DNA of 64,000 bases from TPA_inf: Saccharomyces (lineage: Eukaryota), in NCBI GenBank assembly GCA_000146045.2, contig BK006935.2, positions 1 through 64,000 on the forward strand, given 5' to 3'. A program made the translations under genes and the position numbers. Shown piece by piece: positions 7,235 through 27,968 of the stretch. Numbering within the stretch: position 1 is the stretch's first letter; each line of letters begins with the position of its first letter. The notes beneath the pieces were generated by a model. It worked only from the letters and a program-made list of their open reading frames with translations, made no database searches and was not told the origin of the DNA.

Positions 7235-9016
7235 TTATTTTTCATCAGATACTGATAAGGTTTCAACGTCTTTTGACGTTGGCTTTTCCACACCATGTTT
7301 AGAGTTATAAAGCACAATACCGTTCTTCTTGGCATTGTTCCTTTCATCACGTTTATAGAAGTAGAGTACAACAAAAGTCCAAATGGAGAGACAAAAAGCA
7401 GAACATGCAGTGAAAGTAAACCCCTTTAAATACCTGGGAGCTTCTTCTGTTTTCCAAACCAAAACACTTATCCATGCGGTAGATGATTGAGCCATAATAT
7501 TCATTGTAACTAAAGTAATAGCTCTAGTTTGAGCATCTCGGCGACAAATATCGTTTTGCCAAGAGTATAAAACAGGAGCCATAGCCCAACCAAAACATTG
7601 CAGCATAAATGCAAACCATTTGGCTCCTTCTGCGACGTCCCAAGCGGCTAATATGGAGTTACCAATGATATTGAAAACCTGAGTAAAAATAATCGCAAAC
7701 CAACGAGAGTGTAATTTATCTGCAATAATACCAGTAAGCATCAAATAAACCATACCTAAACCCGGAGTAATCATGGATAACTGATTGAGCTTAGGAATAG
7801 AGTATCTTTTCAAAGATTTCAACCATAGTAGGTATGCCCCAGATGAAACATTACTGTCATTCCAACAGAAAATATTCCATAAAGTTAAAATGTATATTTT
7901 CCAATCACTGAAAATTGTTTTCCACAGTTTAATATCGAATACTTTTGTTTCAAAATCACTTTTACCTGTTTGGTTTTCTTTTAATCTTTTCCTCGCCAAC
8001 CTAATTTCATCATCAGTTAAGAAAATAGAATAACAGTTGTATGGGTCACCTGGCAGGGAGTAAAATCCAATAAGGCCCACTACGACAGACACAATAGCGT
8101 CAATAATAAAGTTCCATCTCCATCCCTCTAAACCATTTACACCATTTAACGATGAATATACGGCTGACTGGATCCCACCAGCGGATAGAATACCGATATA
8201 CTGGCCCAAATAGTAAAAAGCAGAACGACGCACCATTTCATCATGTTTGTAAAAGGAACCAAACAAATATTGGTATGCCAAATAACTTGGCGCTTCAAAA
8301 GCCCCAATGAAAAACCTAATTGCTTTCAAGTGTGGTACAGAATTGACATATGCAGCACCAACGGTTAAAAGCGACCAACATAAGTCGAGGCTTGGTAAAA
8401 CATAGTTTAATGGGAGCTTGTTCAGGTAAATCAAAAATGGCAATTGAAATATAATATTACCAACTGTGTACATTACTTGAGTATGCACCAAATCATTACC
8501 TTGAAAGCCTAAATCTTCCTTCATTCCCGAAACGTAAGCGTTGTTTATATTAACCGTATCCAGATATTTCACCCAATAAGCAATACAAGAATAAAAGGCT
8601 AAAAGGACATCCAATTTAATTAATAATTTTTTTTCTTTGAAAGAGGTACCCTGTTTGAACCAACTATACCATTTATTGTGAGATCTTTCCTTTTCATTGA
8701 TCCGATACTCTTGTTCATCGAAAAATCTCCACCATGGCCTATCGGCTTCATCTCTATATTCATAACTTCTAGTAACGTTCACATTGTCTTTATGTTCACT
8801 ATAGCTACTAGTCTCAAAATGTAGTTGATCTTTTTCACTTGTAGTCGTGATGAAATTTTCAGCTGTTTCATGACTCTGGATACTGTTGGAGATAGTGACA
8901 ATTTCTGTTGAATTTAAGTCATCTGGCAGGTCTTCCACCTGCCGCTTTACTGGAATAAAACCCCATTTTAGTCTTTTGTAAGGATCTACAATAATCTCTT
9001 TAACAATTGAATACAT
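7235..9016 (-). CDS. SEO1: Major-facilitator-superfamily permease of the allantoate/Dal5 family, 593 aa
   Basis: A 593-aa ORF with a long hydrophilic N-terminus followed by multiple hydrophobic TM segments ([55 protein letters not shown]). It matches SEO1 from memory. Confidence 0.9.
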
Positions 9017-10090
9017 GTATGTTATTTATATATGCAGTAGTTCTCTTTGTAATTTTTTTTAACAAATAGAGAGTAAGATATGTAGCGAATGTCCATTCAT
9101 CATAACAGGTAAACTAGATGCTCTTTTATATAGTCTGGTTGTATAAATAATTTATATCCTCATCTAAACGCATGTCTCCGCTTGGTTTCTTATCTATTTG
9201 TGGAGGCACCCGTAGTACTGTGCTTTCGTATTTTTTTATTTATTTATTATTTGTAGCAGTTTTTTTCCAGTGACACAATCTTTACCATTACACAGTTTTT
9301 ACTATTTCTAATGATTACATTGGACCATCGGAAAACTGCGCTAACTTTGGATAACGCCACAGAACGTGATCTGACTATTGTAAAGGTGTCATTCGGTAAG
9401 GTAAACCTTCAAGGCGTCCACACCTTTAACCATATAACAGCGTAAACTCTTGTTAAAATACAGGGGTAAGACATTGGTGGATATTCAACAAGATCCGATA
9501 CCTCCAATTCCGATTTCTACAAATTGTGCTCTACATATTACTGCGATGCAATTATCCACACATAAAATCGATGCCTTTAGAAAAAGACATAAAGCAGACG
9601 GCATTGTAGATATTTGACCAATTAGAATTGAATGAGATGAATATCTCACCAAGCTATTCGATATTATAGATAAAGTTTGTATCTTAGTTATGCATTGTGA
9701 GTTGGTTGCTCTACTCGCGGTTACCAGTCTCTTCTAAAAAATCTAAGGCCAATGGTATCCATGACATTTCTGCACTTTTTGTAATTGGTTTAGTTATGAA
9801 AGGAACGTCAAACCAAATGGTTTTTCAGATAAGAAATTGACAGTATCTGAGAATTTGCTATCAAAGCTCAGAGGATTTACATATTTTAACGTAATTAAAA
9901 CATTTTTATGTTCGATATATTAGCAAATAGCGTATTAATATACAGCTGTTGCGCTCATGGTAAAATTTAGCGATATACTTTGCATCTTGGCTGCAAAGAA
10001 GAATGAATCGGATATACTATTTTTGATCATAATGACGGACATCATGATATAATAACGTTATACGGATAACTTTATTTCAAAAGCACCATC

Positions 10091-10399
10091 ATGTTATCTC
10101 TTGTAAAAAGAAGTATTCTTCATTCAATACCAATTACTCGTCACATTCTTCCAATCCAATTAATATTGGTTAAAATGAACCATGTGCAAATCAGAAACAT
10201 AAAATTATATCACTTTATTTCATATGGTTTCATGCTTACAAAGCTTACTGTCTTTCTCTTTAACTTATTTTTCTACAGGCTACGAATTCTTTGCAGGCTT
10301 ACTTTACTCATATTATCATTACCTGTACAAATATATATTAAAGAAATCCAAACAAAAATGCTTGAAAAGCATACAGCTTCCGATACATCATGTATATAG
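10091..10399 (+). CDS. Dubious 102-aa ORF
   Basis: An AT-rich ORF of low complexity with no recognisable domain. I recall it is annotated as dubious (YAL066W). Probably not protein-coding. Confidence 0.15.
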   Translation: MLSLVKRSILHSIPITRHILPIQLILVKMNHVQIRNIKLYHFISYGFMLTKLTVFLFNLFFYRLRILCRLTLLILSLPVQIYIKEIQTKMLEKHTASDTSCI

Positions 10400-11564
10400 A
10401 AAATCACAGTACAAAAATTTTGAATTTATGTATAACCGTTTCGCCTGATATATGTAAGAGCTCTTGATTGTCGGAATAGTTCGGGAATTCTGGGTGGAAC
10501 TAGTAGCTGGAGATGCGTTCTAAAGGATCTAAAATCAGACTCACCCCAAAAACCAAAATTTTGATATTCAACTTTAGTATTAGCCAGTCTTAAAATGATT
10601 TTTTGCCAAGAAAGCCGAAGTTTAACGAGCGTTTTAAAATATGCACAAGTCCATTAATTAAATTTGATCACAGTGATTACCAATTTTGTTGAAAGCAGTA
10701 ATTTGTGACGTCCGTTTTTGGCACAAGTAAAAAATATTTGTTTTGAAGTCTAGTTACAAGAAGCTACTGAAAACACAGGGCTGGATATAGATGTTTATAA
10801 GCTCCTCCCATGGTCTAAGAGTTTCTCCAAACGCCTAATGTATGCAATTTGTTAAATAAAAATGAAGAATAGATGCATAAACAAGCGTCATTAAAGTTCT
10901 TATCATTATTCCATGTAGAAATGACCTGCAAGTACGAGCTGGTTATGCGAAACTGAGCTTAACAACATAGTTTTCTTTTCCATTGGCTTGGATATAAATT
11001 TTTCGCTGAGAAACTTCTCTGCATTTTTTAAGCATTAAGCGTACATAACATAAAGTCACTGAGATATTAGAGGTTATAAAAAAAGACTACGTGGGTGTTT
11101 ACCTAAGATTTTCACAACTTGTTTATTAATTGGATAAATAGTATTTTTCTTGGCATTTACAAACTTTATGTTTTTAGGTGTATTTGCAGTTCCATTAAGG
11201 GAAATAAGTCATAAGCTTTTTTGGAAAACAGATTTTTTGCCCCGCTTAACCTGAAATTGATATTAAAAGAATGTGTGAATGGCCATTAACTAACAAGAGA
11301 ATTAATAATGTTAAAACACAGATACCTCGAAACAAACTCTATGTAAACACTTATTTTATTGTGGTAATATTTTTTGATAACAACACATCTGAAACAAAAT
11401 AATGCAAAGCCGAATAGTTAGGCTAAAAATGTACTCTTAGACATTTAAAAAGGTTTATGAATCCTATGGTATTTAATATATTAAAGAACGAAGTAAATGG
11501 GAAAAAATGTGTAAACACTATAAGCGTGATGATAGAATTATTAATATAAGATGATGCCGTGCGT

Positions 11565-14149
11565 TTACCATACGATTGCCAGCAATACGGTGGAAATAAA
11601 AACACTTATGCCATTATTGGTCAACAGACCATTGGCAATACCAACGTAGGTTGAGATTTCTAAAGAGGCAGTACTAGATCCTATTATGCTACTTGCTGGT
11701 GTGCTACGAGGCTGTTGCGACATAGTACTTAACCCGGAAGTTATTAGACTCTTGGTGTTGCCAGTTTCGGATACAGAAACAACACTACTGCTGTGACCAA
11801 TCACATCGGTCGCGGAAGCCGTCTGTGTTTCAGCATGATTGAATCTTGAAATTGAAGAGGTGACTACTGTTTTCGTCTCAGCAGCTCCAGTACTGGTAGT
11901 TGTCTCAGCAGCTCCAGTATTGGTTGTTGTCTCACTGGTAGCACTGTTCATTTTAGAGCTGACAGACTCTTCATTCGTAGTCTGTGGCCTCCATGTTGGA
12001 TAGACCGTAACAACATCATTCACAGTAGCCGTGGCCGTCGAAACAATGGCAGGTGAAGCAGTTTCGGAACACACACCAGATTCGCAGGAAGTAACAGTAA
12101 CTAGCGTAGTTTGTTGCCTCGATTCTGTGGTGGAAATAGGACACCATGTCGTGTATTCTGTGGTAACGCCGTTAATAGTAGCAGTGCTTATAGATACAAT
12201 GGCTGGAGAAGCAGTCTTAGAGCATACGTCAGATTCACAAGAAGAAATTGTAACTACTGTGGTTTGCTCTGTTGTCCCCTTGGTTTGCTTTGTTGTCTCC
12301 GTAGTTTGCTTTGTTATCTCTGTGGTAGAAATAGGGCACCATGTGGTATACTCTGTTGTGGCACCGCTAACAGTAACGGTGGCCGTGGAAACAATTGCAG
12401 AGGAGATGGATTCAGTGCACACATGAGATTCGCAGGATGTCACGGTAACCAAAGTGGTTTGTTCGCTCGTTTTTGTAGTGGTAGCAGGTGGTAATGAAGA
12501 AGCAGTTTCCTGGCTTGTTGTTGTACTGATAACAGGTGGTAATGATGAAGTAATTTCCTGACTTGCTGTCGCACTGGTAACAGGTGGTAATGAAGAAGTA
12601 ATTTCCTGACTTGTTGTTGTACTGGTAACAGGTGGTAATGATGAAGTAATTTCCTGACTTGTTGTTGTACTGGTAACAGGTGGTAATGAAGAAGTAATTT
12701 CCTGACTTGTTGTTGCACTGGTAACAGGTGGTAATGATGAAGTAATTTCCTGACTTGTTGTTGTACTGGTAACAGGTGGTAATGATGAAGCAGTTTCCTG
12801 GCTTGTTGTTGCAGTGGTAATAGGTGGTAATGATGAAGACGAATATGTAGACTTTGGTGATTCAGAAGAGATAGAAGAGGAAGAAGAGACAGAACTAGCT
12901 GAACTAGTTTCGCTCTCAGAAGAACCAGAGGTGGAACTACTGGTTGGAATGACGGATGATTTAAATGATTCAGAGAATATAGAAGTGGAGGTTGTTGTAG
13001 AAGAAATGACAGGGGAAGAAATGAATGAAGAAGAAATGACTGGAGAAGAAGTGACTAGAGAAGAAGTGACTGAGGAAGAAATGACTAGAGAAGAAGTGTC
13101 TGAGGAAGAAATTACTGAGGAGGAAATCACAGAAGTTCCATTGCTAGGATAGAATGGGGTAATAATTGGATGCTAAGACGTGATAGAGCTGGTTATTTGT
13201 TCTGAAGAAGATGATGACAAACTGGATGAGGTGGCAGTGGTTGGACTTTTAGCAACAATAACGGTTTCGTCAGTTGGTTGACCATTAGTGCCAGTGACAG
13301 TAGTCATCTCAGTAGAAGTCGAAGTGGTAGTTGCGATGGTGCTAGTAGTATGTTTTGAAGGATCAGGGATAGTACAATTGGGCTGTTAGGTCATCGTCAA
13401 AAGAGTAAACGTGCCCTGCAAAATCATCGCTAACAGTAGTAACATCAGGCAATTCCACGCTAACTGGCAGTGTATGCCAAGAAACAGCGTTTGAGTAGAC
13501 AATCTTCATTGGACAGTAGAATCCAGCATACATATACACAGTCCCTGCAATGTTATCGGGCAATCTTCCTTGCCATGGCTTGATACCATTAATCGTAAAG
13601 TTTGTGGATGTAATTGGAGGTTGCTCTTGTGCACAGCATCCGAATGCAACGTCGCCACCGACTGATAGAATTGCAGAGTCATCGACCTTAGCAAACCTGA
13701 ACGTGTAAGAACTTGTTTGTGGTGGTAAAAAGTAACCTGTCATTTCTAGAGTAGCGTTTTTTGGGATAGTATAGAAACCAAGTAAATCAGTACTCCAATA
13801 GGTCTTTCCTGGCTATTTTGAACATTCACTATGACCTCTGCATCCCCAGTTTCCATAAGCATCTGATTGAGCACATTTAAAAGTTCCTGAAGAGATAACA
13901 CAAGAAAGATCGTAGTCAATTGAGAAATCCGTCTGTCCGCCAACGGAACCTAATTCCAATTCGAGGCATATCCAGAAGTCATATATTGCGGGTAGGAATA
14001 CGTTGTTGAATTCAGTAATGAGTACAAAAGTTGACATTCATCCCATTTTTCCTCGGGTCCGTTGGCAAGCATGCTTGTGTACTTCCTGAAACAACATTGG
14101 ACGTGGCCAGGTAGGTGAAGAGTGCCAAAAATAAATAGTGATGAGGCAT
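11565..14149 (-). pseudogene. Degenerate FLO-family flocculin gene (FLO9/FLO1 paralog) broken by frameshifts and a stop
   Basis: The 11565..13130 ORF (521 aa) is near-identical to the C-terminal third of FLO9, including the [39 protein letters not shown] modules and the hydrophobic GPI-type tail. The fragment 13363..13743 matches the FLO9 PA14 region ([30 protein letters not shown]...GIKPW...VYMYAGFY) and runs into a TGA at a point where FLO9 stays open. Bases 13131-13362 hold a single 135-nt FLO repeat unit in another frame. The reverse complement of 14149..14015 encodes [41 protein letters not shown], a FLO1-like signal peptide followed by a stop. The fragments are annotated as separate small ORFs (YAL065C, YAL064C-A). 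Confidence 0.85.
12443..12836. repeat. Tandem 48-nt (16-aa, [16 protein letters not shown]) coding repeat, about 8 copies
   Basis: The unit acaggtggtaatgatgaagtaatttcctgacttgttgttgtactggta repeats head-to-tail. The antisense ORF 12440..12718 reads [16 protein letters not shown] repeatedly, confirming the period. The equivalent FLO9 stretch near 24925-25010 has only about 2 copies. Confidence 0.85.
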
Positions 14150-14689
14150 TTCTTGGTTCGTCAATCAGGTATGGGTATATTAAACAATAACTTTAAGCCA
14201 TGCTGTTAATGATGAAAATTCTGATGCTGGTCTCTTCATATGTCATTGTTTTGGGAACTGTCTTTTTTCGATCAGATGTATGCGCAACGATTTGTTTAGC
14301 GTAGTGATGTTCCCGCGTAGTACTTAGGAAATTTTGGTATCGAAACGTCCCTACAACACTTTTTGTCGCTGATATCTGCACATGTGAGTAACGCAGATTC
14401 CATTGCATTATTACCTTCCCCTTCCCAGAAACGATTTATTACGACTCAACAAGTTCAAGAAAAAAATTAAAAAGGTTACAACCGCATTTTGCGTTTAGGT
14501 GCAGCGAGACTTACCTTGATGCAGTCCTAAAGGGTCCTGCAGCGGTTGTAACGAATCCTATTTGCTTTTGTGCATTCCTAAACGGGCTGAAGTAAAAGTC
14601 TTGAGGAACTCCAGGAGAAGATACGATAAGCTCCGAAGTGCCAAATTTTATTATCAAAAAAAAATATTTGTACGAGCGGAAAAGGATTA

Positions 14690-14940
14690 TACTCTTCCTC
14701 TTTTGCTTCATCACAAGAGGATTATTTTGACGTCGTCTGTTGTACTACTTCTTTATCGGTGTGCGCAGGAAAAGAAAGAAAAAGGAAGGAAAAATAGATG
14801 TCAAAAATCGATGTCAAAAAATCTCGTGAGACCTCCGGAATTTTGACGCTGCAAGTCAATCTACGGGAAAGAAGAAATTTTTTAAACCTAATGCAAAATA
14901 AGCTTTTCTTGGAAAATAAGATTTTCGGCAATAAAAGGTA
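14690..14940. repeat. Copy A of an unannotated diverged ~230-bp dispersed direct repeat
   Basis: It shares ordered blocks with 20880-21095: cttttgcttcatcacaag, tttatcgg, aaaaggaaggaaaaat, tgcaagtcaatctacgggaaagaagaaatttt, aacctaatgcaaaataag.ttttc. Both copies are in the same orientation. Confidence 0.6.
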
Positions 14941-17900
14941 AATGCAGCCAAAAATCAAAATACTTCAGAAGAAGTCGTAGCGAGGACTGCTAAGGGGAAG
15001 CGGATTTGAAGATCCTTTCCAGAACAAGAAGGAGCCGAAAGCTGTCAGGAACTGTTCCTGATTTTTTAGGAAAACAATTAATAGGTATCTCGTCTAGAGT
15101 AGTATCTCGAGCTTCCAGAAGTTGCAGATAATCAAAATCATTGTTTTATCCCTTTTTTTAGATTACAGCTTAGAAGAGTAGAGAGCAAGTTTACTGAAAC
15201 GGTTCCTTGTTTACAATAATATTCCTAACAAACTTTACGAATTAGGATGCAGCATGATTTTTTATATTGCTTCACTTCCTAAAGTATGAATTTTTATCCG
15301 TAGTCGCAAACAAAACAGCTACTGGAAATCTGCAGCTTGTTAAAAACCGGTAGTTTCCGAATACTCCTCGTCCTTGAGTTGTATACCGTTAAACTTCCTA
15401 GGGTGTCATGTGTCTGGCCCAATTGGCCCACAAAATCTGGTCCTATTGACGGTTTTCTTTTGATTTTCAGCATCTTCCTCTAAGAAGGACAGAAAATTAT
15501 GTAATATATGGGAGAAACGGCCTCCCAACTGCTAAGTGTCCCCGGCAGCACGAGTAAGCAAAATTCAGGCAAACTATTGCATTAAGAAGCCGTACATAAT
15601 TCAGCGTGATATGATGAAATTTTGTTAATTGCAAATTTTAGTACGATTTGGTTGTTAGTGTGTGTTTATGCAAGTAATTATTGAACCCTAAGTAGTTACT
15701 GTCTTCTTTTGCTGTAATTCGTGGATTCACGGCCCTCCAGCAACATGGATTGAAAGGTTCTTTAAAGTTTTCAATCCGTAAAGTTCTGAAATGTATTTTA
15801 ATCATGTCAATAATTTTACTGGTGAGTAGCATTTATGACCAAAAGCGTACTTAAATTAGCAGCAAAAAAATTTTTAATAACGAAACTATAAGGAAAATAC
15901 GAGGTACTGATTATGAGAGTCCCCGTTTCTCATTTTTGAGACATGATCTGAACAAGGCTGAAAACAGCAATCTTTTTCGATAACTTTTGCAAAAATTTCA
16001 AACATTGTTGTTTGAATGCAGCCAATTTTTATAGGGTACAGAGCTTAATGCTTTACATGTGCTTTATTTTCGGTACTTTCCTTAAAGTGTCTACATTATC
16101 TCTCAGGACTTGAATGTCTTCGGCTGAATTACTATAAAATCTTGAGTTTTCTCTGAAGTTTAATCCTAAGACAATAGTGGTGAGTGATGTAGTTCACGTG
16201 TGTGCCACTGGTAATAATAGAGATAACTATCTCAGTTAAGTTTGAAAAGGTAAAAAATAGTTTAAGTAGTCATTTTTTGCGACGGTCATTCTTCTCTGAT
16301 GCACGTTCTTTAGACTACCTATAAACACCATTCTTACGGAATTATAATGGAAATAAAACATCAGTACGTGTTGCTGTCGGTGATAGAGGGGTAACAGAAC
16401 CTTAATTGAAAAATTAGCACAGTGCATAATTTATTAACATGATTGTTTTCTGTGGAAAATAAGAAATTCAGCACCAGTAAAAGACGAGAAATATAGGCAC
16501 ATAAATGCGCTCTTACTCGTATGTTCCAGGATGAAAATGTTTAGGGCATCAAGTATTGCCGAAAGGGCAATATGCTTTAACACCAGAAAATCCACTGTAT
16601 ACTCGTTACGGGTAAACAAAGCAAAACGCAGTGCGTGATAATGTTTCTAAAATCTCTGCACACTGTTGAAATGCGGCTCTGATACTTTAGCCCTTAGTAC
16701 CTGACGGTGCCTAAAATGAGGATAAGTATATGAGTTTACAACGAATATAATGCTTTTTACCTCATCATATAAAGAATAATATTAATTTAAAAGTAAAAAT
16801 TAGACCTAGGTGGTAATGAGGAATGTGTCCTAATGAATTTATGTAGTTGATGCTTTTGCAGCGTTTTTTTTTTTTTGTATTAATCAAAGTGCACTACGTG
16901 ACAAAAATAAAAAGTGGATGAAAACAAAAAAATCACAGATTTTCATAAAAATAACATGGTATTCTTAATCGTATATCGTAATGGATTGTCAAAAATAAAG
17001 AGAATATAGTCGGTTCAAACCACTTTGTACGTCTACAGAGTATAGTGTAGAAATTATAGTTAGGATTGTGACATCCCTTTTTCTTTAACATAATAAGTTT
17101 GCTTCAAATTAATTGATCAATTAGGATAATAACTCTCAACACCTTTATTATTTATGTTTAGAGAGTTTATGGTCAGATGGTGATTGGTATTGATACTTAT
17201 ACTTTTTTTCTCATTAGTATAATACGCTATATTCCATGTTTGAATAGATCTTATTTTTTGGCTGTCTAGATAATAAACATACCGTTTTTAACACACACAC
17301 ACCAATGAGTAGACGTTATTGCGACTGTATGCCCTTTAAGATATTCTGTTCAAAGAGATAAGGTATTTATTCGTTTTCTTGCAATTTCTTCTCATCTATC
17401 ATTATCATACCAGATTGAATCTTATTTTTTAATTTTTAGTCTATTTGATGACGGCTACTGAATCTTTACATTACTTGAGCTGAGAAGTAAAATTGCATTA
17501 TTCATATTAAACAAAAAAATCAATTTCCCATAAAGACAATAGCTCAACTTCATCACGTCCTTGGTTTTTACCGAGTACATATATTTGATGAATTCTGATT
17601 TGAAAATATCAATTTGTTCCTCTAGAATATTTCCACTCGCACATTCAAAAGCAGGTATTGGAACGCACAAGAAGCGATCGTCACCTTCCATTGGGGTTAG
17701 TAGCAGGATATATATTTCCATTCTATATTCCAGGTTCTCTTTCACAATTTTATTGAATGAAATACCTGAGCTACCAAATCAGTCTTAATAACACCATCTT
17801 TTACACCGGTACTACAACAAACCATACTGAGTCTGAAATTGGACTTCTGCAATGAAAAATTTAAGCCCTGATCTACGCATAATGCCCGCTATAAACCTTA

Positions 17901-20879
17901 TTTTTTATATGGGGGTCTGGCGCTTCGGGAAAAGAGAGGAAAACTTGTAACTCAATATATCTCGATACAACATTACGTTTTGTAAATTTATCACAAAAGC
18001 CAAATGATGATATCTCTCTTGCAAGTTATCGAACATTGATTGGTAATTTGTTTGAAAATTGTTAATTTATTGAATATTTCTTTTGCAAAAGAAATAGTCT
18101 CAGCGAAAGCTGGTTACAAAATTTACATCATGAGTTTACGGGATTTGTAAATACGCTTTTTGCATAAAAATACTTTGCCGTTTCCCACCCTTGCATATTC
18201 ACTTACTCCCCCCTTCATATACTCTATGTAATGATGATTAAGCTTTGGCCGCTAAGTCTCTCAATTAGTGTTGATTTTGGTTTTATTCATATGATTCTTC
18301 TTTAGTGAAGTATTGATCAATTACGTGAGTCAGCTTTTTGAAAACCCCATTTGGAAGGAATTAGGAAATTATTTTGCTTACTACGACCACTAATTTACCG
18401 CCATTTCTGGGCCTTTTTATTGACTATTTTGACCATGTGCTCGACTAGAAGAACGGCATCATAATCTGCTGGTAGAGTTAGTCTATAATGATTGTTGAAA
18501 ATAAAGGCATAAGAGATATTCCACCTAAAATTCAAGTTATTGACTTTATTATCAGGATCTTAGTATCCTTTTTTGGTAAGTCATATTCAATGAACTAGGT
18601 CTCGCAAACTTTTTGTTCGAAAAGCGGTAGTGCATAGTTATGCTAACTCTGGATATATGGCATAAACCGTACAACACTAGCCCATTTTTTTGGAAGTAGT
18701 GAGGGCAGCTAGACTGTATGATGAATATTCGCCTGCATACTGAGTTTTTTGGTCCTTTTTTTTATGTGGCTGGCCTTACGATATGATGCACAATTCATAA
18801 TTTGGAAGAAGGGCAGAACAATTGCATCTGTGCTTGGCTCTCAAGAACGGTGTTTGGTGCATCAAAAGTTTTCGACTGCTTATTTGGTCGGAAATATAAA
18901 AACTCGATCCTCTTATCTAAGCAGTATACATTCTTCTTTTTGAAATGAATGTACTCCGTAATATCTTCTTATTTGGCATTTTCATCCTTAACTTTTGCAT
19001 GGCTCTGAACTAGTCAGATAGTTGCCCTTTTCAGCAAACCTCTTATTATTGAAAGCATGGTGTACATCCGTTATACTATTATATTATAAGAAATTGGGAT
19101 GCCAATTTTTTTGCTTTTGTTTTGCCTGTTTTCCTTCTTTTCGCAAAAGTAATTGCAGATTTAATAGCAGGATATTATACCGTTGGTAAAACTTAAGGAT
19201 TTTATGAACAATAGCTTCAAGTACAGCATTCATAGAACCAACTACTAAGGATGAAACTAGTATGTTTTTGTCAAAATATTTTCTTGACCTTGCTGTAACA
19301 TCAAGATCTGTTTCTCTAAGATATTAAAGTTGAGTAAAAACAAAGCTGATATGAGAAAAATACGTAATTGCTCCACATAATACGTGGGTCAGACATAAAG
19401 GTAGAATACTTGATACAGAAGAGATTATTCGGTACTCTTGATGGCGTGCTTGAACTGGTGCCTCTTAACAACCGGTAATATAGTCAGATGAGTCACTACG
19501 AGTGTGTGTAGTAGCAAGTGTTTTACCTACGTGGCAGTAAGAGTAGCTCTATGGTTGTGTAATAGTGGTGCTTATTCCTAATGCTCTGAAGTCTGAAGCG
19601 GTACAGTTGGTCTGGTCTATATCATGGTCAAAGGAGCAAACATATCTTCTGAAGTGACCGCAAATAGTACTATGATGTGGTTGGCAATATAACTTAAAAG
19701 GAAATAACCACAAGGAATTGCACCCATGTACACAGTTTTTCCCGGAAATTGGGAAACCAGTACGAACATATATCAATTACTTTTACATTATCTTGATTGG
19801 AAAACTGGCACAATTGACTGTGACGTTAGTAGTATGTTGTTCTTCTCTACATCAGTTAAATATACGTGTCAACATCAACTAATCAACTTTCCCCCGTTTA
19901 CCACATTGAAGCTGGGTGTGGAAGATTTATTTGAAGAAACTAAAACGTACCCTGTCATTTCCTGAGTCCCCTTTCAACTTAGTGTGAAAGCCGAACAATT
20001 ATAATCCTCGGTAGACAACAGATTTATTGTACTAAAGTTACTCTTCCTGTTATCTTCCTTGATTTTACTGTTATAGCAATGACCCACCGCAATCAGGAGA
20101 GCCGCCGTATGGAATAGCATACCAAGTCATAAAATCGTCAACCTATTAACGGGGTTCAGGTTCTTTTTCAGCGTAGTAGCCCTTTAACAAGCGCTGACAA
20201 AGTTGACACTCAGAGAAAATTCAGGATTTATTGTAATCCAGCTACTCATCCTTAGATCCGCTTGCAGGCATGGTTTTTTTCACCTTGAGAGGCTATTTTG
20301 GGTAAGCCAGGAAGGCTGAAAAATCCCAAAAGGACACAGTAATAAGAAATTGTTGTTGTTGTATGATGCATTTAGAACTCAAAAGACGAGTTTCTGAAAA
20401 TGCTTACAATACTCCATAGGTAACATGATTTTTTTATTAAAAAAGTATACTGTTCCTTTGGGTAAAAATTATGCAACCCTTGAGTGTCCGATGAAGATAA
20501 GACTACGAAACAATTTGCGGTAAATTTTTTCTGCTATTGACATTTACACATGCTCCAATCCATTACCCTTTCCATTCTCGTAATAAAACCTCGAACTGTT
20601 ATTTCATATTTACATCTAGACGGGTATCGGCCTCAACAACTCCAAACAAAAGTAAATAGAAAAGAGCCAGACCTATCGCACCGGGTAGAGCCAGAAAATA
20701 TTTTAAACTATAGTTGACGTATTCTACGGCTGTTGTTTAGGACAATACTTTTTCCTTCACAGGCTTCGAATTACGCACATGCAGAACTCCTGTAGAAACC
20801 ACGAAGAAAAGTTTAATTAACTTTCAAATGCCAGAACTAAAGATTGATGAAACAGTTATACGAATTTAAGGGGAACTTG

Positions 20880-21095
20880 CTTTTTCCTTTTGCTTCATCA
20901 TAAGCGCAATATTCGCAGCGGTGGCGTCGCGTCTTACCATTTATCGGCACATTTTTCCGAAAAGGAAGGAAAATGGCGGTGTCAAACGGTCTGGTGTGAC
21001 ATCTAGAAGTTCGGCATTGCAAGTTAATCTACGGGAAAAAGAAAATTTTCTTATAACCCTAATGTATAATAAGGTTTTCGGAGAAAGCAACTCAC
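20880..21095. repeat. Copy B of the same diverged dispersed direct repeat
   Basis: Blocks cttttgcttcatcataag (20888), tttatcgg (20940), aaaaggaaggaaaat (20961), tgcaagttaatctacgggaaaaagaaaatttt (21018) and aaccctaatgtataataaggttttc (21055) appear in the same order and spacing as in 14690-14940, allowing for small indels. Confidence 0.6.
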
Positions 21096-21565
21096 GGGGA
21101 ACAATTGGTTAGAAGAGACCGTAGAAGCGCCCCACTAACCTGGAGTTGATTATCGAGGATCTTTCTCAGAAAAGCAGCTAATAAATGAGCACAGTACTCA
21201 AAAATTACTCATAGTATTATAATTACTTACTTAGTCAATATGGCTGCGCTTTTAAAATGAGTATCTTTTATTTTTTGACAAGGAAGAAAAAGATGCAAGC
21301 AAAGAGAAATTTACTAAGTACAAGCTCATTTCCAAAAATTCAGTTTGCCTGTAACAATGGGTAGCGATCTTCAACATATGGGATTATGCCTTGAATGAGA
21401 TTTTTGAACGTAGAGGAAAAAATCGCAGACAGGCTTTATTGTGCTGTTTGACATAGTATACTCAGCCGTTGTGGTGTTAATGAATACTATCGATGTGTAT
21501 ACAAACGTACTTCAAATAAGCAATGCGAATATACTGCAACTTTTCGGCCTTTGCAACGATTTGTA

Positions 21566-21850
21566 ATGAATCCTTTTGCATCGCTAGAAGGACAAGATAA
21601 TATTTCTTCTGTTTTTTTTTTACATATGCAACAATTTGAAAGTCAGGTCAAAGACAGATTCCGGTTCCCCATATTCAGATTGGAGAGAAAAACTTTTGGC
21701 AACTCATGTTACCAAGTCGAGACGCTTAAAGTTAAGTGTCGGCCAAGACACGCAAAATCTTGTAATCTTTTAACGCTGCTCTTCAAATCACGGACGCAAT
21801 CAGTACTTGTACCTAATTTTGGTTTTCTAATATTGAATAGCGAACCATAG
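21566..21850 (+). CDS. Small uncharacterised ORF (94 aa)
   Basis: Open frame 21551..21850. I recall an annotated small ORF (YAL064W) from the Met at 21566. No domain is recognisable and coding status is uncertain. Confidence 0.2.
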   Translation: MNPFASLEGQDNISSVFFLHMQQFESQVKDRFRFPIFRLERKTFGNSCYQVETLKVKCRPRHAKSCNLLTLLFKSRTQSVLVPNFGFLILNSEP

Positions 21851-22394
21851 GTCGAAAATTTAAGGCCACATAAATCCAGAGCCCGCAACTTGGATAGGTA
21901 TTTACTTGATTTTTAGTTTGCTTTCAATAGTGTCGTGAAATTATAAAGTACGCCGCATATATATCTTGATTAGTTAAAAATAGCAGTGTTCAATGATGAT
22001 TTGATAGGGTTCATAACTGGTACCAGCGTAGTACAATTACGATTATCCATGAACATAAAAGTGGTTTAAGTACTATATATCAGTGAAGCTTCAAAGTAAG
22101 CAAACGAGATACCAAGATCTTGTAGGACCACGATATATAAGAAGCCTAGTTCCGTTGTAGCATCACATAGAAGAGAGCGACAATGCCTCAGAAATTCTAC
22201 AGCAACAGAAAGCACAGTGAGTCATTAACTGTTGGAATAAGACTCAACTGCGAGCTATCGACTAGTACTTATATTACTAGTATATTATATACGGTGTGAA
22301 AAGACGACATGAAGATTGAGGAAATGGTCCCAAGATCTAATGGACACTGAAATGCAAAAGTTGATAATGTAACATGAAAATTAAGGACAGCATA

Positions 22395-22685
22395 TTAAAC
22401 AGAAGAGGAAATAATGGTATTTTTACATAGAGATATGAATTTCCCTTTTTCTTTGTTCCTATATCTCTGATAATAAGTTATAATATACTTTGTGCATCTT
22501 ATATCATGCCTTTTCAACAATGAAATATCAGCAGTTATCAAAGCATTCGCCAAATTTTTATTAATAAAACAAATGTCAGAAATATGGCCGGAATCTAATC
22601 TGAAAGTTAAAATAATTCTTACGATATTCTTATCATAAAACCAATGATTAATGTTTATGATGAGCAAAACTGTGCGAGGGCACAT
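22395..22685 (-). CDS. Small uncharacterised ORF (96 aa)
   Basis: An AT-rich 96-aa ORF with no recognisable domain, annotated I believe as YAL063C-A. Coding status is uncertain. Confidence 0.2.
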   Translation of the reverse strand: MCPRTVLLIININHWFYDKNIVRIILTFRLDSGHISDICFINKNLANALITADISLLKRHDIRCTKYIITYYQRYRNKEKGKFISLCKNTIISSSV

Positions 22686-23712
22686 ACATACAGTGGGACC
22701 TCATGAGATCCAGAAAAAAAGCAAAGGAAAGTTCGATCGAAACATTAGCTCTTAGATATTACAGACGTGAGGTATCTCTTCCTTGAAGAGAATCTGGCCC
22801 TGATCAAAAACTTTATTTTGATACTGTTCGAAAAGAGAAATAAGGACAACGTTCTAATTTATACAAATATAACCAGTAGGCTTTATCGTAAAATCCTCGA
22901 ACTTGCTTCTCATCACAGAAGTATAAAAAGTAAAGAGGTCAAGCAAGAAACGAATAACCACCAAATTTTTTTCAATTGAAAAGCGAAACGTAATGGAAAT
23001 TCACCTGCTTTGAATCGTTGTTGAATTCTTATCATCAGTCATTATTTTCCTCTTTTAAAGCTTAAGTCAACCGCATCTAAGTTTAACACTTCGTTCCCGT
23101 TTTGAAGTTTATCAAAATTCCAAAATACAGTAGTTAGGTGCTCGTGACAAACCTTTTTCCAAAGTGTCATTAGACTTCATGGAACTACTACACTTCTGGG
23201 GAACGAAAAGCTACCATTTGCTCATCATTGGATAATTTCTTTTTTTTTTTTTGATGCATCCAAACTTGGACCCCTTTTGAATGTCGAGTATGAAGTATCA
23301 ATTTTAGGGCAAGTAGTTTTACAATAATTTTGGTGCACTTTTACGTCTCTGCTGATATTTTTAATACTAGTGCAAAAGAATTCGAAATAAATATAAAAGA
23401 ACAAGGAGGATTAACATACTTTAAATAACTAATTATCACCATTATTTCAAGTTTCAAGTACTGCGTATGGCATGCACAGCAGATTTCTACTCAAAAACAT
23501 CCTAAGCGAACCACACTAGATCTTACGTTAGTACTGCTGAAAATGGCAATAATTGTTAAAGCAAAAATTGGCGATGGTTCATTAATTGCTAAACAAAATA
23601 GGGCATTTTTCCTCGTTAATGATAAGTACTCATACTTCTGTTTCTATAAGTGTTAGTTGTAACTTATGAAATATCGATTTAAATTCGAAGTGTTGTTTGC
23701 AGGATATAAATC

Positions 23713-23762
23713 AAAAAAAAAAAAAAAAAAAAAAAATTAAATAAATAAATAAAATAAATACA
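23713..23762. repeat. A24 homopolymer followed by an (AAAT)n-like tract
   Basis: aaaaaaaaaaaaaaaaaaaaaaaa at 23713-23736, then ttaaataaataaataaaataaataca. It lies about 240 bp downstream of the FLO9 stop codon. Confidence 0.9.
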
Positions 23763-23999
23763 ATGATATCGATAACGGTGAAATTCTTTTCATGGATTTT
23801 TGTTGCCCAAGAAAATAACAATAACGTTTTCTTTATGATACATATATCTACTTTTTCAAAAAAGGAAGCGCAAGAATTATCATTTAGTTCAATTTGAATA
23901 TTTGAAAGTTTGGAGGAGAAACAGTTAAAAAATAATTCATGTCAGCGTATATTTAGCAAAGAAAAGATACACAGATACGTAAAAAGAACGCGAATTTTA

Positions 24000-26900
24000 T
24001 TAAATAATTGCCAGCAATAAGGACGCAATGAAGACACTTAAACCACTACCGGCCAGTAAGCTGTTGGCACTGCCAGCATACGTTGAAATTTCTAAAGAAG
24101 CTGTACTAGATCCTACCATGCTACTTGCTGGTGTGCTACGAGGCTGTTGCGACATAGTACTCAACCCGGAACTTGTTAGACTCTTGGTGTTGCCAGTTTC
24201 GGATACAGAAACAACACTACTGCTGTGACCAATCACATCGGTCGCGGAAGCCGTCTGTGTTTCAGCATGATTGAATCTTGAAATTGAAGAGGTGACTACT
24301 GTTTTCGTCTCAGCAGCTCCAGTACTGGTAGTTGTCTCAGCAGCTCCAGTATTGGTTGTTGTCTCACTGGTAGCACTGTTCATTTTAGAGCTGACAGACT
24401 GTTCATTCGTAGTCTGTGGCCTCCATGTAGAATAGACCGTAACAACATCATTCACAGTAGCCGTGGCCGTCGAAACAATGGCAGGTGAAGTAGTTTCGGA
24501 ACACACACCAGATCCGCAGGAAGTAACAGTAACTAGCGTAGTTTGTTGCTTCGATTCTGTGGTGGAAATAGGACACCATGTTGTGTATTCTGTGGTAACG
24601 CCATTAATAGTAGCAGTGCTTGTAGATACAATGGCTGGAGAAGCAGTCTTAGAGCATACGTCAGATTCACAAGAAGAAATTGTAACTACTGTGGTTTGTT
24701 TTGTTGTTTCTGTGGTTTGCTCTGTTGTCCCCTTGGTTTGCTTTGTTGTCTCCGTAGTTTGCTTTGTTATCTCTGTGGTAGAAATAGGGCACCATGTGGT
24801 ATACTCTGTTGTGGCACCGCTAACAGTAACGGTGGCCGTGGAAACAATCGCAGAGGAGATAGATTCAGTGCACACATGAGATTCGCAGGATGTCACGGTA
24901 ACCAAAGTGGTTTGTTCGCTCGTTTTTGTAGTGGTAACAGGTGGTAATGAAGAAGTAATTTCCTGACTTGTTGTTGCACTGGTAACAGGTGGTAATGATG
25001 AAGACGAATATGTAGACTTTGGTGATTCAGAAGAGATAGAAGAGGAAGAAGAGGCAGAACTAGCTGAACCCGTTTCGCTCTCAGAAGAACCAGAGGTGGA
25101 ACTACTGGTTGGAATGACGGATGATTTAGATGATTCAGAGAGTATAGAAGCGGAGGTTGTTGTAGAAGAAATGACAGGGGAAGAAATGAATGAAGAAGAA
25201 ATGACTGGAGAAGAAGTGACTAGAGAAGAAGTGACTGAGGAAGAAATGACTAGAGAAGAAGTGTCTGAGGAAGAAATTACTGAGGAGGAAATCACAGAAG
25301 TTCCATTGCTAGGATAGAATGGGGTAATAATTGGACGCGCAGACGTGATAAAGCTGGTGATTTGTCCTGAAGAAGATGACAAACTGGATGAGATGGCAGT
25401 AGTTGGAGTTTTGACAATAATGACAGTTTCATCAGTTGGTTGACCGTTGGTTCCAGTGATGGTGGTCATCTCAGTAGATGTAGAGGTGAAAGTACCGGTC
25501 CATGGCTCGGTTGTAGTTGTAACCAAACCTTCACTGGTTGGAGTTCTGATAACAATCACGGTTTCGTCAGTTGGTTGACCGTTAGTACCGGTGACGGTGG
25601 TCATCTCAGTGGATGTAGAGGTGAAAGTACCAGTCCATGGTTCAGTGGTGGTGCTGATTAGACCTTCACTAGTTGGAGTTCTGATGACAATGACGGTTTC
25701 GTCAGTTGGAACGCCGTTGGTACCGGTGACGGTGGTCATTTCAGTGGATGTAGAGGTAAAAGTGTCGTTCCATGGCTGAGTTGTAGTCATGGCAGTAGTG
25801 GCTGTTGTTGGTGTTCTGATGACAATGATGGTCTCATCAGTTGGCAAACCGTTGGTACCGGTGACGGTGGTGATTTCAGTGGATGTAGAGGTAAAAGTGT
25901 CGTTCCATGGCTGAGTTGTAGTCATGGCAGTAGTGGCTGTTGTTGGTGTTCTGATGACAATGATGGTTTCATCAGTTGGCAAACCGTTGGTACCGGTGAC
26001 GGTGGTCATTTCAGTGGATGTAGAGGTAAAAGTGTCGTTCCATGGCTGAGTTGTAGTTATGGCAGTAGTGGCTGTTGTTGGTGTTCTGATGACAATGATG
26101 GTTTCATCAGTTGGCAAACCGTTGGTACCGGTGACGGTGGTCATTTCAGTGGATGTAGAGGTAAAAGTGCTGTTCCATGGCTCAGTTGTAGTTATGGCAG
26201 TAGTGGCTGTTGTTGGTGTTCTGATGACAATGATGGTTTCATCAGTTGGCAAACCGTTGGTACCGGTGACGGTGGTCATTTCAGTGGATGTAGAGGTAAA
26301 AGTGTCGTTCCATGGCTGAGTTGTAGTCATGGCAGTAGTGGCTGTTGTTGGTGTTCTGATGACAATGATGGTCTCATCAGTTGGCAAACCATTGGTACCG
26401 GTGACGGTGGTGATTTCAGTGGATGTAGAGGTAAAAGTGTCGTTCCATGGCTGAGTTGTAGTCATGGCAGTAGTGGCTGTTGTTGGTGTTCTGATGACAA
26501 TGATGGTCTCATCAGTTGGCAAACCATTGGTACCGGTGACTGTGGTCAATTCGGTAGAAGTAGAGGTAAAAGTGTCGTTCCATGGCTGAGTTGTAGTCAT
26601 GGCAGTAGTGGCTGTTGTTGGTGTTCTGATGACAATGATGGTCTCATCAGTTGGCAAACCATTGGTACCGGTGACTGTGGTCAATTCGGTAGAAGTAGAG
26701 GTAAAAGTGTCGTTCCATGGCTGAGTTGTAGTCATGGCAGTAGTGGCTGTTGTTGGTGTTCTGATGACAATGATGGTCTCATCAGTTGGCAAACCATTGG
26801 TACCGGTGACTGTGGTCAATTCGGTAGAAGTAGAGGTAAAAGTGCTGTTCCATGGCTCAGTTGTAGTTATGGCAGTAGTGGCTGTTGTTGGTGTTCTGAT

Positions 26901-27968
26901 TACAATGATGGTTTCGTCAGTTCGTACACCATTGGTGCCAGTGACTGTGGTCAATTCGGTAGAAGTAGAGGTAAAAGTGCTGTTCCATGGCTCAGTTGTA
27001 GTTATGATGGTGCTAGCAGTTGTTGGAGTTCTGATGACAATGACGGTTTCGTCAGTTGGAACGCCGTTGGTACCGGTGACGGTGGTCATTTCAGTAGATG
27101 TAGAAGTGAAAGTACCGGTCCATGGTTCCGTTGTAGTTATGGTAGTACTGACAGTATAATTTGAAGGGTCTGGAATGGTACAGTTTGGCTGGCTTAGATT
27201 GTTGTCAAAAGTATATACGTACCCTTCAAAGTCATCACTAACGGTAGTGCCATCTGGTAGTGTCACACTAATTGGAAGTGTACCCCAGGCAACGGCATTT
27301 GAGTAAACAATCTTCATTGGATAATAGAAACCAGCATACATGTAGACAGTCCCTGTAATATTATCAGGGGGACTTCCATTCCATGGCTTGATACCATTGA
27401 TGGTGAAGTTAGTCGACGTGATGGGAGGTTGTTCTTGTGCACAACATTCGAACGCAATGCTACCACCGACTGATAGAATTGCAGAGTCGTCAACTGTAGC
27501 AAACTTGAATGTGTAAGAACCCGTCTGTGGTGGTAAAAAATAACCTGTCATTTCTAGGGTTACGTTTGTTGGGGTAGTATAGAAACCAAATAAATCAGTA
27601 CTCCAGTATGCAATTATTGGATTATTAGAACAAGCACCAATTCCTTTGCATCCCCAATTACCATATAAATCTTCTTGAGGACAAGGAAATGTGCCTGATG
27701 AACTAACACAAGGAATATTATAATCAATCGAGATATCAGTTTGTCCTCCGACAGAACCCAGTTTAGTTTTTGAGGCATATCCATAAGCCATATATGCTGC
27801 ATTCGAATATGTGGAGGAATCTCTCAATGAATACTGGTAAAAGTTTACATTCATACCATTCTTCCTTGAGTTTGCTGGCAGGCATGCCGCTGTAGTCGCA
27901 GAGACAACATTAGTTAATCCCAGCAATGTGACGATGGCTAGTAGTAAACAATAATGTGCCAGAGACAT
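24000..27968 (-). CDS. FLO9: Lectin-like cell-wall flocculin, GPI-anchored, 1322 aa from the Met at 27968 (the open frame extends to 28010)
   Basis: An N-terminal signal peptide ([24 protein letters not shown]) is followed by a PA14/Flo mannose-binding domain ([31 protein letters not shown]...[22 protein letters not shown]). Then come 13 tandem 45-aa Thr-rich repeats ([38 protein letters not shown]), a Ser/Thr-rich stalk with Cys-containing modules, and a C-terminal hydrophobic GPI-attachment tail ([14 protein letters not shown]). Confidence 0.93.
25400..27160. repeat. Array of 13 tandem 135-nt in-frame coding repeats inside FLO9
   Basis: A 135-bp periodicity holds across about 1.76 kb. Many adjacent units are nearly base-identical, for example 25786-25920 against 25921-26055. 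The antisense ORFs at 26059..26319 and 26734..27159 repeat for the same reason. Confidence 0.9.

Follow-up and report, generated by a model that had tools for sequence, protein, structure and literature searches.

What is the second FLO gene that lies beside FLO9 at the left end of yeast chromosome I (chrI-L), and why is its front part broken while its rear part is still an open frame? The DNA analysed, called the window throughout, comprises the first 64,000 nucleotides (nt) of the Saccharomyces contig BK006935.2 (GenBank assembly GCA_000146045.2). The element in question is a pseudogene of the flocculin (FLO) family at positions 11565-14149 on the minus strand, with its start codon ATG at 14149 and its stop codon at 11567-11565. 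The interval is one disabled FLO gene, a non-functional flocculin pseudogene. With a probability of about 0.8, we regard this catalogued dead pseudogene as a recombinant of two histories, in which the head of a dead FLO lineage was joined by ectopic recombination to the native tail of FLO9. That a dead FLO gene lies here is already known; what is added is its corrected history, with a dead head, a live FLO9 tail and, with less assurance, the status of a minority allele. Compared sequences are designated by L and a number.

Gene structure of the interval

An earlier reading of the window from its letters alone (the sequence-only reading) had described these coordinates as one pseudogene collinear with FLO9, telomere-proximal to it by 10 kilobases (kb) and split by annotation into small open reading frames (ORFs) on both strands; it had proposed an alignment with FLO9 in which the frameshifts and stops are listed. 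The alignment was run, the frameshifts and stops were located, and on all these points the reading held. When the region was searched against the window with blastn, the interval aligned collinearly with FLO9 over the whole gene, start codon to stop codon, in three minus-strand matches, and with E-values of 0 to 3e-168 this is far beyond chance. The frame, with three frameshifts and two TAG stops, is split into ORFs at 11565-11951, 12046-12426 and 13363-13743. C1-3A telomere repeats open the window, which places the pseudogene nearer the telomere than FLO9, from which it is separated by 9.85 kb. The features are as follows.

24000-27968, minus strand: reference FLO9, 1322 amino acids (aa), with 13 units of the 135-nt repeat; forms a direct repeat with the pseudogene
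11575-12550, minus strand: first blastn match, to FLO9 at 24007-25003, 93.1% identity
12754-13326, minus strand: second blastn match, to FLO9 at 24919-25488, 92.7% identity
13234-14098, minus strand: third blastn match, to FLO9 at 27016-27911, 74.4% identity
13233-13343, minus strand: single flocculin repeat of the 45-aa type, 111 nt instead of 135, with a 24-nt in-frame deletion between 13327 and 13326
12469-12838, minus strand: 48-nt minisatellite, 7.7 copies
11982-12455, minus strand: three Cys-containing flocculin type-3 repeats (12455-12327, 12260-12132 and 12107-11982)
11568-11675, minus strand: C-terminal tail of glycosylphosphatidylinositol (GPI) type, type V, ending in STYVGIANGLLTNNGISVFISTVLLAIVW, unlike the type A tail of reference FLO9

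The frame was repaired by reference to FLO9, and domain searches were run on the repaired product of 863 aa. From its N-terminus, which is hydrophobic, it runs through a PA14/GLEYA domain, a single shortened 45-aa repeat and a Ser-rich region to the 48-nt minisatellite, the three Cys-containing type-3 repeats and a tail that is again hydrophobic. Pfam detected PA14 (3.5e-22), GLEYA (1.7e-16) and three Flocculin_t3 repeats (2.9e-30), and against the sequences of crystal structures the N-domain matched Flo5 at about 1e-129 (1.2e-129 for Flo5A) and Flo1 at about 1e-125. By alignment, the hydrophobic start MPHHYLFLALFTYLATSNVVSG corresponds to the signal peptides of FLO9 and FLO1 and is a putative secretion signal. 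The N-domain retains the stretches VDD and NAVSW, which we take to be the calcium and mannose site of Flo5. The domain list of the sequence-only reading was right in naming PA14, Cys-type repeats and a GPI-type tail. Its 135-nt repeat unit, on the other hand, is 111 nt long and lies below the Pfam threshold, with no PF00624 match to the single repeat at E <= 0.001 and no repeat array, compared with 13 units in FLO9; the 48-nt minisatellite was not mentioned. Beyond the coding sequence, blastn found no homology between the flanks of the pseudogene and those of FLO9 except one weak match of 105 nt.

Lesions of the reading frame

Three frameshifts and two TAG stops break the frame, all of them between 14026 and 13173. 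Their distribution among the 15 pseudogene copies in our comparison is given with each.

14026/14025, minus strand: 4-nt deletion (ATAA), frameshift; only in the window and its four closest copies
13963/13962, minus strand: 1-nt deletion, frameshift; 15 of 15 copies, at three chromosome ends
13815-13813, minus strand: first in-frame TAG, at repaired codon 114; 15 of 15 copies
13385/13384, minus strand: 2-nt deletion, frameshift; in the chrI-L copies, L019 and L020; it terminates the 126-aa TDA8 ORF
13175-13173, minus strand: second in-frame TAG (ITS*HP); 14 of 15 copies, including those at the right ends of chromosomes I (chrI-R) and VIII (chrVIII-R); FLO9 alleles have TCG or GCG

There are also in-frame deletions of 6 nt and 24 nt, and the latter marks the chrI-L copies, L019 and L020. 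Since the same lesions recur in independent assemblies and at other chromosome ends, they are real and not sequencing errors. As judged from its frame, the pseudogene is predicted to make no adhesin. A frame broken at several points, as previously described, is thus found in five lesions, but these are not spread over the gene: all five lie within the first 977 of 2585 nt (P = 0.008 under an even spread), and 13172-11565, the final 1608 nt, form a single open frame. The two parts are therefore treated separately below.

The head and its lineage

The disabled part holds the following element.

13345-14149, minus strand: dead head with putative signal peptide and PA14/GLEYA lectin domain, about 74% DNA identity and 73% protein identity to FLO9

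Between the head and FLO9, the synonymous divergence (dS) is 1.06 and the ratio of nonsynonymous to synonymous divergence (dN/dS) is 0.15, which means that most of the divergence of the head accrued while the head still worked. The protein identity of its N-domain to FLO1, FLO5 and FLO9 is 70-73%, while these three share 82-87% with one another. On these sequence comparisons the head represents a separate FLO lineage, distinct from FLO1, FLO5 and FLO9, which would have diverged under purifying selection and then died. The head has 94-97% DNA identity to the pseudogenes at chrI-R, where they are found downstream of a FLO1-type gene (L001, L012, L018, L019, L021 and L023), and at chrVIII-R (L013 and L014). 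The copies were gathered through database protein matches and through a small ORF in the spacer between the pseudogene and FLO9. Their common lesions across chromosome ends indicate either that the gene was dead before the block that carries it spread, or that the lesions were spread by conversion.

The sequence-only reading had taken the interval for a decayed copy of FLO9 and had suggested that other strains could carry an intact gene here. The first suggestion fails on both parts, for the head belongs with the chrI-R and chrVIII-R lineage (73% protein identity to FLO9, dS of about 1 and dN/dS of 0.15) and the 3' part is not decayed. The second is true only of the rear. In other strains, intact genes (841, 1583 and 2122 aa) do share this very stop codon, but they are FLO9 genes, with the promoter and N-domain of FLO9 and without the spacer and the dead head; no intact head appears in the 15 copies, all of which share the same frameshift and the same first TAG. 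A protein search likewise gave no intact version of the head above 79% identity at full coverage, a weak negative as few long repetitive proteins are among its matches. At the FLO5 position on chromosome VIII (after YHR207C-YHR210C) in strain CPA_1a, L015:10001-13205 contains a FLO gene split into ORFs of 380 aa and 643 aa. The N-domain of this gene, an unusual one, has 79% identity to the dead head and 73-79% to the compared FLO1, FLO5 and FLO9 alleles, and it is the closest to the head among the matches listed that is free of frameshifts and stops.

The single copy of the 15 without the second TAG is L019, in which a short patch of working-FLO sequence covers the site. Its region 19540-19900 at chrI-R is a mosaic, with the 2-nt and 24-nt deletions of chrI-L type, then the working-FLO patch, and then sequence of chrI-R type. 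This patch shows directly that FLO genes and pseudogenes exchange short tracts by conversion, and together with the pseudogene-specific lesions common to several ends it bears out the earlier statement that FLO pseudogenes exchange sequence with FLO genes.

The open tail and the single-gene strains

The rear part and the neighbouring gene on the telomere side are as follows.

11565-13172, minus strand: unbroken frame of 1608 nt, with 98-100% identity to the 3' ends that single-gene FLO9 alleles have in other strains
7235-9016: SEO1/YAL067C, a permease of 593 aa, named from the source names of its relatives

Several of the compared chrI-L loci have a single gene: one FLO gene lies between GDH3 and SEO1, with the same stop codon as the pseudogene, at a distance of 2549 nt from SEO1. 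Both the upstream region and the N-domain of this gene are of FLO9 type. Its 3' part has 98-100% identity to the pseudogene tail as against about 93-95% to the 3' part of reference FLO9. Intact single-gene FLO9 alleles, running from MSLAHYC... to ...LLAIVW, were found in L003 (2122 aa), L004 (1583 aa) and L010 (841 aa); all three have the type V tail, identical to that of the pseudogene and putatively of GPI type. From this we consider that the tail, by its sequence, is the native 3' end of the chrI-L FLO9, still in an open frame; in many other strains it serves as the actual 3' end of a single FLO9 gene. Compared with reference FLO9, the tail of the pseudogene has 97.5-98.8% identity up to about 11700, then 85%, then 68%, and none past the stop. 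The last 135 nt or so of reference FLO9 and its downstream flank are of FLO1-module type. A protein search with the C-terminal tail returned only 8 short proteins, which show the two tail types and no outgroup.

All the single-gene loci lack the window from 13.3k to 26.9k. The reference layout was found in three other assemblies (L007/L022, L009/L025 and L024), of which the public chromosome I assembly L009 is 99.7-99.9% identical to the window. A survey of 93 strains gives YAL064W, which lies within the spacer, in 17 of 93 strains and FLO9 in 92 of 93.

The minisatellite varies in copy number among these alleles, being longer in L003 and L004 and shorter in L002, L007 and L010; no 48-nt array was detected in reference FLO9, where the site is largely an alignment gap. 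In L011:1-7452 the single-gene FLO9 is open over at least 2483 codons, to the edge of the compared DNA; about 5 kb of it consists of 135-nt repeats that also run to this edge, far above the 13 repeats of the reference. In two other single-gene alleles (L002:4866 and L006:4882) a stop replaces Cys29 (ATTAA*LPANS). These alleles are probably dead too, although they are annotated as proteins of 842 aa and 837 aa from a downstream Met.

The lineage switch and the surrounding block

Two more features are needed to see how the head and the tail came together.

13147-13170, minus strand: lineage-switch interval; pseudogene type on the 5' side, native FLO9 type on the 3' side
14150-23999: spacer from the pseudogene to FLO9, 9.85 kb, absent from single-gene strains

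The switch is sharp. At 13420-13250 the window is 96-97% identical to L001, the closest chrI-R pseudogene, compared with 32-83% for FLO9 alleles and 78% or less for its own FLO9. From 13134 onward it is 98.4-100% identical to the FLO9 of L003, compared with 86-90% for the chrI-R and chrVIII-R pseudogenes. The last sites of pseudogene type are the TAG and CAT at 13175-13170, and the first site of FLO9 type is at 13147 (TATCCTAGC versus TATCGCAGC).

On the other side of the head, the spacer is collinear, at 94-97%, with the spacer between FLO1 and the pseudogene on chrI-R and with that upstream of the chrVIII-R pseudogene, and at both ends the similarity to the window, again 94-97%, extends from about 23450 to 13089. 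On chrI-R the match is longer still. The window from 26612 to 13089 is collinear, at about 95-96%, with an arrangement of FLO1, spacer and pseudogene (L018, from 26337; L019, L021 and L023), and this block takes in the FLO stop codon, tail and downstream flank. Within the window itself, FLO9 and the pseudogene are direct repeats, with 1.5 kb at about 98% identity, 12.2-12.4 kb apart.

An exchange of this kind can be seen in another strain. L020, at 193.7-214.0 kb of the contig of L011 (chrI-R), has a FLO1-type head followed by a block of the chrI-L reference type (24366 to 12379) at 99.8% identity. The block carries the 4-nt deletion, and this strain's own chrI-L has a single giant FLO9. It appears that a chrI-L end was copied onto chrI-R in this strain, and the gene with a FLO1 head and a chrI-L block shows that swaps of ends between FLO loci do occur.

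Origin of the locus

Our preferred account is that homologous recombination between subtelomeric FLO modules would have inserted a block into an ancestral single FLO9. In this block a type A-tailed FLO 3' part would be followed by the 10-kb spacer and then by the dead head, and chrI-R carries the same block in one piece. One end of the exchange would lie in the repeats or the 3' region and the other at 13170-13147. The outcome would be a reference FLO9 with a foreign 3' end, and a native 3' end orphaned behind a dead head. A single event, homologous at both ends, accounts at once for the intact tail, the abrupt change of lineage, and the foreign tail and flank of reference FLO9. At present the only plausible activity of the locus would be that of a recombination partner, as donor or recipient of short conversion tracts.

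It would follow that the chrI-L layout of the reference is a derived minority allele, in which a block of about 12.2-12.4 kb came from another end, YAL065C is the true ancestral 3' end of FLO9, and reference FLO9 is a chimera of FLO9 and FLO1 types. We lean towards this further step, with the odds slightly better than even; as far as we found, it is not spelled out in the literature.

Several points weigh against the account as a whole. We infer the direction of the event, and a two-gene ancestor that lost the 12-kb interval would yield the same single-gene structure. The 3' parts are mosaic, and short conversion tracts blur the junctions. The loci on the SEO1 side were chosen by exact identity of the SEO1 protein, which makes a small and non-random sample of strains. 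Some single-gene alleles are themselves damaged, with the stop at codon 29 in L002 and L006 and a broken 3' frame in L016. In addition, a mass-spectrometry preprint assigns unvalidated peptides to YAL065C.

The first of these points leads to the rival that survives best, which we consider possible but doubtful. Here the two-gene layout of FLO9, spacer and type V-tailed pseudogene is ancestral, and the single-gene alleles are deletions by recombination between FLO9 and the pseudogene, by which the 3' end of the latter was revived. The direct repeats, about 1.5 kb at 98%, are a good substrate for such a deletion and its products would match the observed structure exactly; the same layout of FLO gene, spacer and pseudogene exists on chrI-R, and the spacer with the pseudogene on chrVIII-R as well. 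Yet an extra conversion is needed for the switch at 13170-13147, and 1608 nt of dead sequence must have stayed free of lesions while the head gained five (P of about 0.008). Crossovers would also be expected mostly in the 98% identical 3' part, leaving reference-FLO9 variants behind, but the single-gene alleles are mostly of pseudogene type up to the repeats. Finally, the single-gene haplotypes are diverse (97-99.4% to the window), and the spacer is a minority allele. The direct repeat also predicts a recurrent deletion of about 12 kb.

That the pseudogene is a local tandem duplicate of FLO9 which has decayed evenly since, as its collinearity, its same orientation and its distance of 10 kb might suggest, is very improbable, for the divergence is sharply uneven (head 74%, tail about 98%), the head with its dS of about 1 and dN/dS of 0.15 diverged as a working gene and not as a recent copy, head and spacer are 94-97% identical to two other chromosome ends with lesions in common, and the tail has no lesions.

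Small ORFs within the interval

Three annotated ORFs lie in the interval, and matching products of 128 aa and 126 aa are annotated as separate genes in public assemblies.

11565-11951, minus strand: YAL065C, 128-aa ORF, the last 128 codons of the open 3' part
12046-12426, plus strand: YAL064W-B, 126-aa antisense ORF, with an equivalent antisense ORF in FLO9 at 24463-24879
13363-13743, minus strand: YAL064C-A/TDA8, 126-aa ORF, starting at an internal Met of the PA14 domain and ending at the 2-nt frameshift

They are fragments of a single pseudogene frame or of its antisense strand. The opposite view, that TDA8/YAL064C-A, YAL064W-B and YAL065C are independent, expressed and conserved genes, can draw on the preprint peptides assigned to YAL065C, on an array study in which YAL064W-B rose together with FLO genes on over-expression of MSS11, and on the gene name of TDA8, which comes from a genetic screen. 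We give this view hardly any credit. The boundaries of the ORFs are set by the lesions and shift with them, and the TDA8-type ORF has 126 aa with the 2-nt deletion and 198 aa without it. TDA8 lacks a signal peptide and covers only the C-terminal half of a PA14 domain. YAL065C has about 98% DNA identity to FLO9 outside the divergent tail, so that neither its peptides nor the array signal of YAL064W-B can be separated from the signal of FLO1, FLO5 and FLO9 at such identity. YAL064W-B is antisense to Thr/Ser-rich repeats and has its twin within FLO9, and this shared antisense set argues against its being a gene. Moreover, the whole region is missing in most strains and was dropped from an engineered, apparently synthetic, version of the chromosome that bears loxPsym sites. 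In that version (L005, CP111106.1, 453 kb; locus 8842-19428) there are six loxPsym sites, window 9515-23405 with the pseudogene and the spacer is deleted, and FLO9 is only 88% identical, presumably because it was recoded.

The plus-strand antisense ORFs of FLO9 are at 24271-24435, 24463-24879, 24543-24947 and 25096-25317, and the matching set in the pseudogene is at 11839-12003, 12031-12426, 12111-12494 and 12814-13152. Both sets appear to be a side effect of Thr/Ser codon use. One paper places a mutation at 'chromosome 1, 12690, intergenic YAL064W-B/TDA8', which is consistent with the ORFs given here.

Relation to known FLO genes

Papers that cite Teunissen and Steensma 1995 name YAL065C, YAR061W/YAR062W and YHR213W as the three FLO pseudogenes. 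The pseudogenes YAR061W/YAR062W (chrI-R) and YHR213W (chrVIII-R) are like the present one in the head and the upstream spacer (94-97%), in the 1-nt frameshift and in both TAG codons, and that on chrI-R also lies about 10 kb downstream of a FLO gene. They differ in that they lose FLO homology soon past the Ser-rich region and pass into unrelated sequence, whereas the chrI-L copy runs on to the full open 3' end of FLO9. The chrI-L copies add the 2-nt and 24-nt deletions, and the reference adds the 4-nt deletion as well. When compared with FLO9, FLO1 and FLO5, the pseudogene keeps their domain order, but with three frameshifts and two stops it has no uninterrupted frame, and it has one shortened repeat instead of the 13 of FLO9 and a type V tail instead of type A.

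Christiaens et al. 2012 (PMC3512402) report that recombination of FLO paralogues across the repeats fuses the N-terminal portion of one gene with the C-terminal portion of a second. The joint at 13170-13147 and that of the gene in L020, with its FLO1 head and FLO9 tail, are of the same type. The difference is that here one partner was already dead, and the result is a pseudogene and an altered FLO9 but no new working adhesin. YFL051C/'FLO12' and REMYFR054C/'FLO13' are described in PMC12157680 as remnants, in the reference strain, of FLO genes whose intact forms occur in other strains or species. In those cases the intact form is the same gene in the same place, whereas here the intact genes are FLO9 and no intact head was found.

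The ORFs YAL065C, YAL064W-B and YAL064C-A/TDA8 are best annotated as parts of a single pseudogene, and the 3' end of reference FLO9 should not be treated as orthologous to the FLO9 3' end of most strains. The direct repeat of 1.5 kb at 98% can mislead read mapping, the assignment of arrays and peptides, primer design and variant calling at FLO9. The locus also illustrates in detail how subtelomeric adhesin genes exchange their ends, dead copies included, although the principle is already established.

Other species and minor features

Scans of 9000-30000 for tRNA genes and Rfam families found nothing. On chrI-R of S. eubayanus (L026 and L027, after YAT1 and SWH1), the gene at the FLO1 position is only an ORF of 345 aa, and there is no further PA14 gene within 10 kb; the block of FLO gene, spacer and pseudogene may be absent from this species. 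In S. uvarum, SEO1 is located on another chromosome, and no SEO1 of S. paradoxus was among the matches listed, presumably because it falls into the 90% cluster of S. cerevisiae. At window 17221-17227 and 21428-21430, all the non-reference spacers, including that of L007 at chrI-L, carry additional AT-rich stretches of about 207 nt and about 92 nt, respectively, and the reference spacer has two private deletions at these points.

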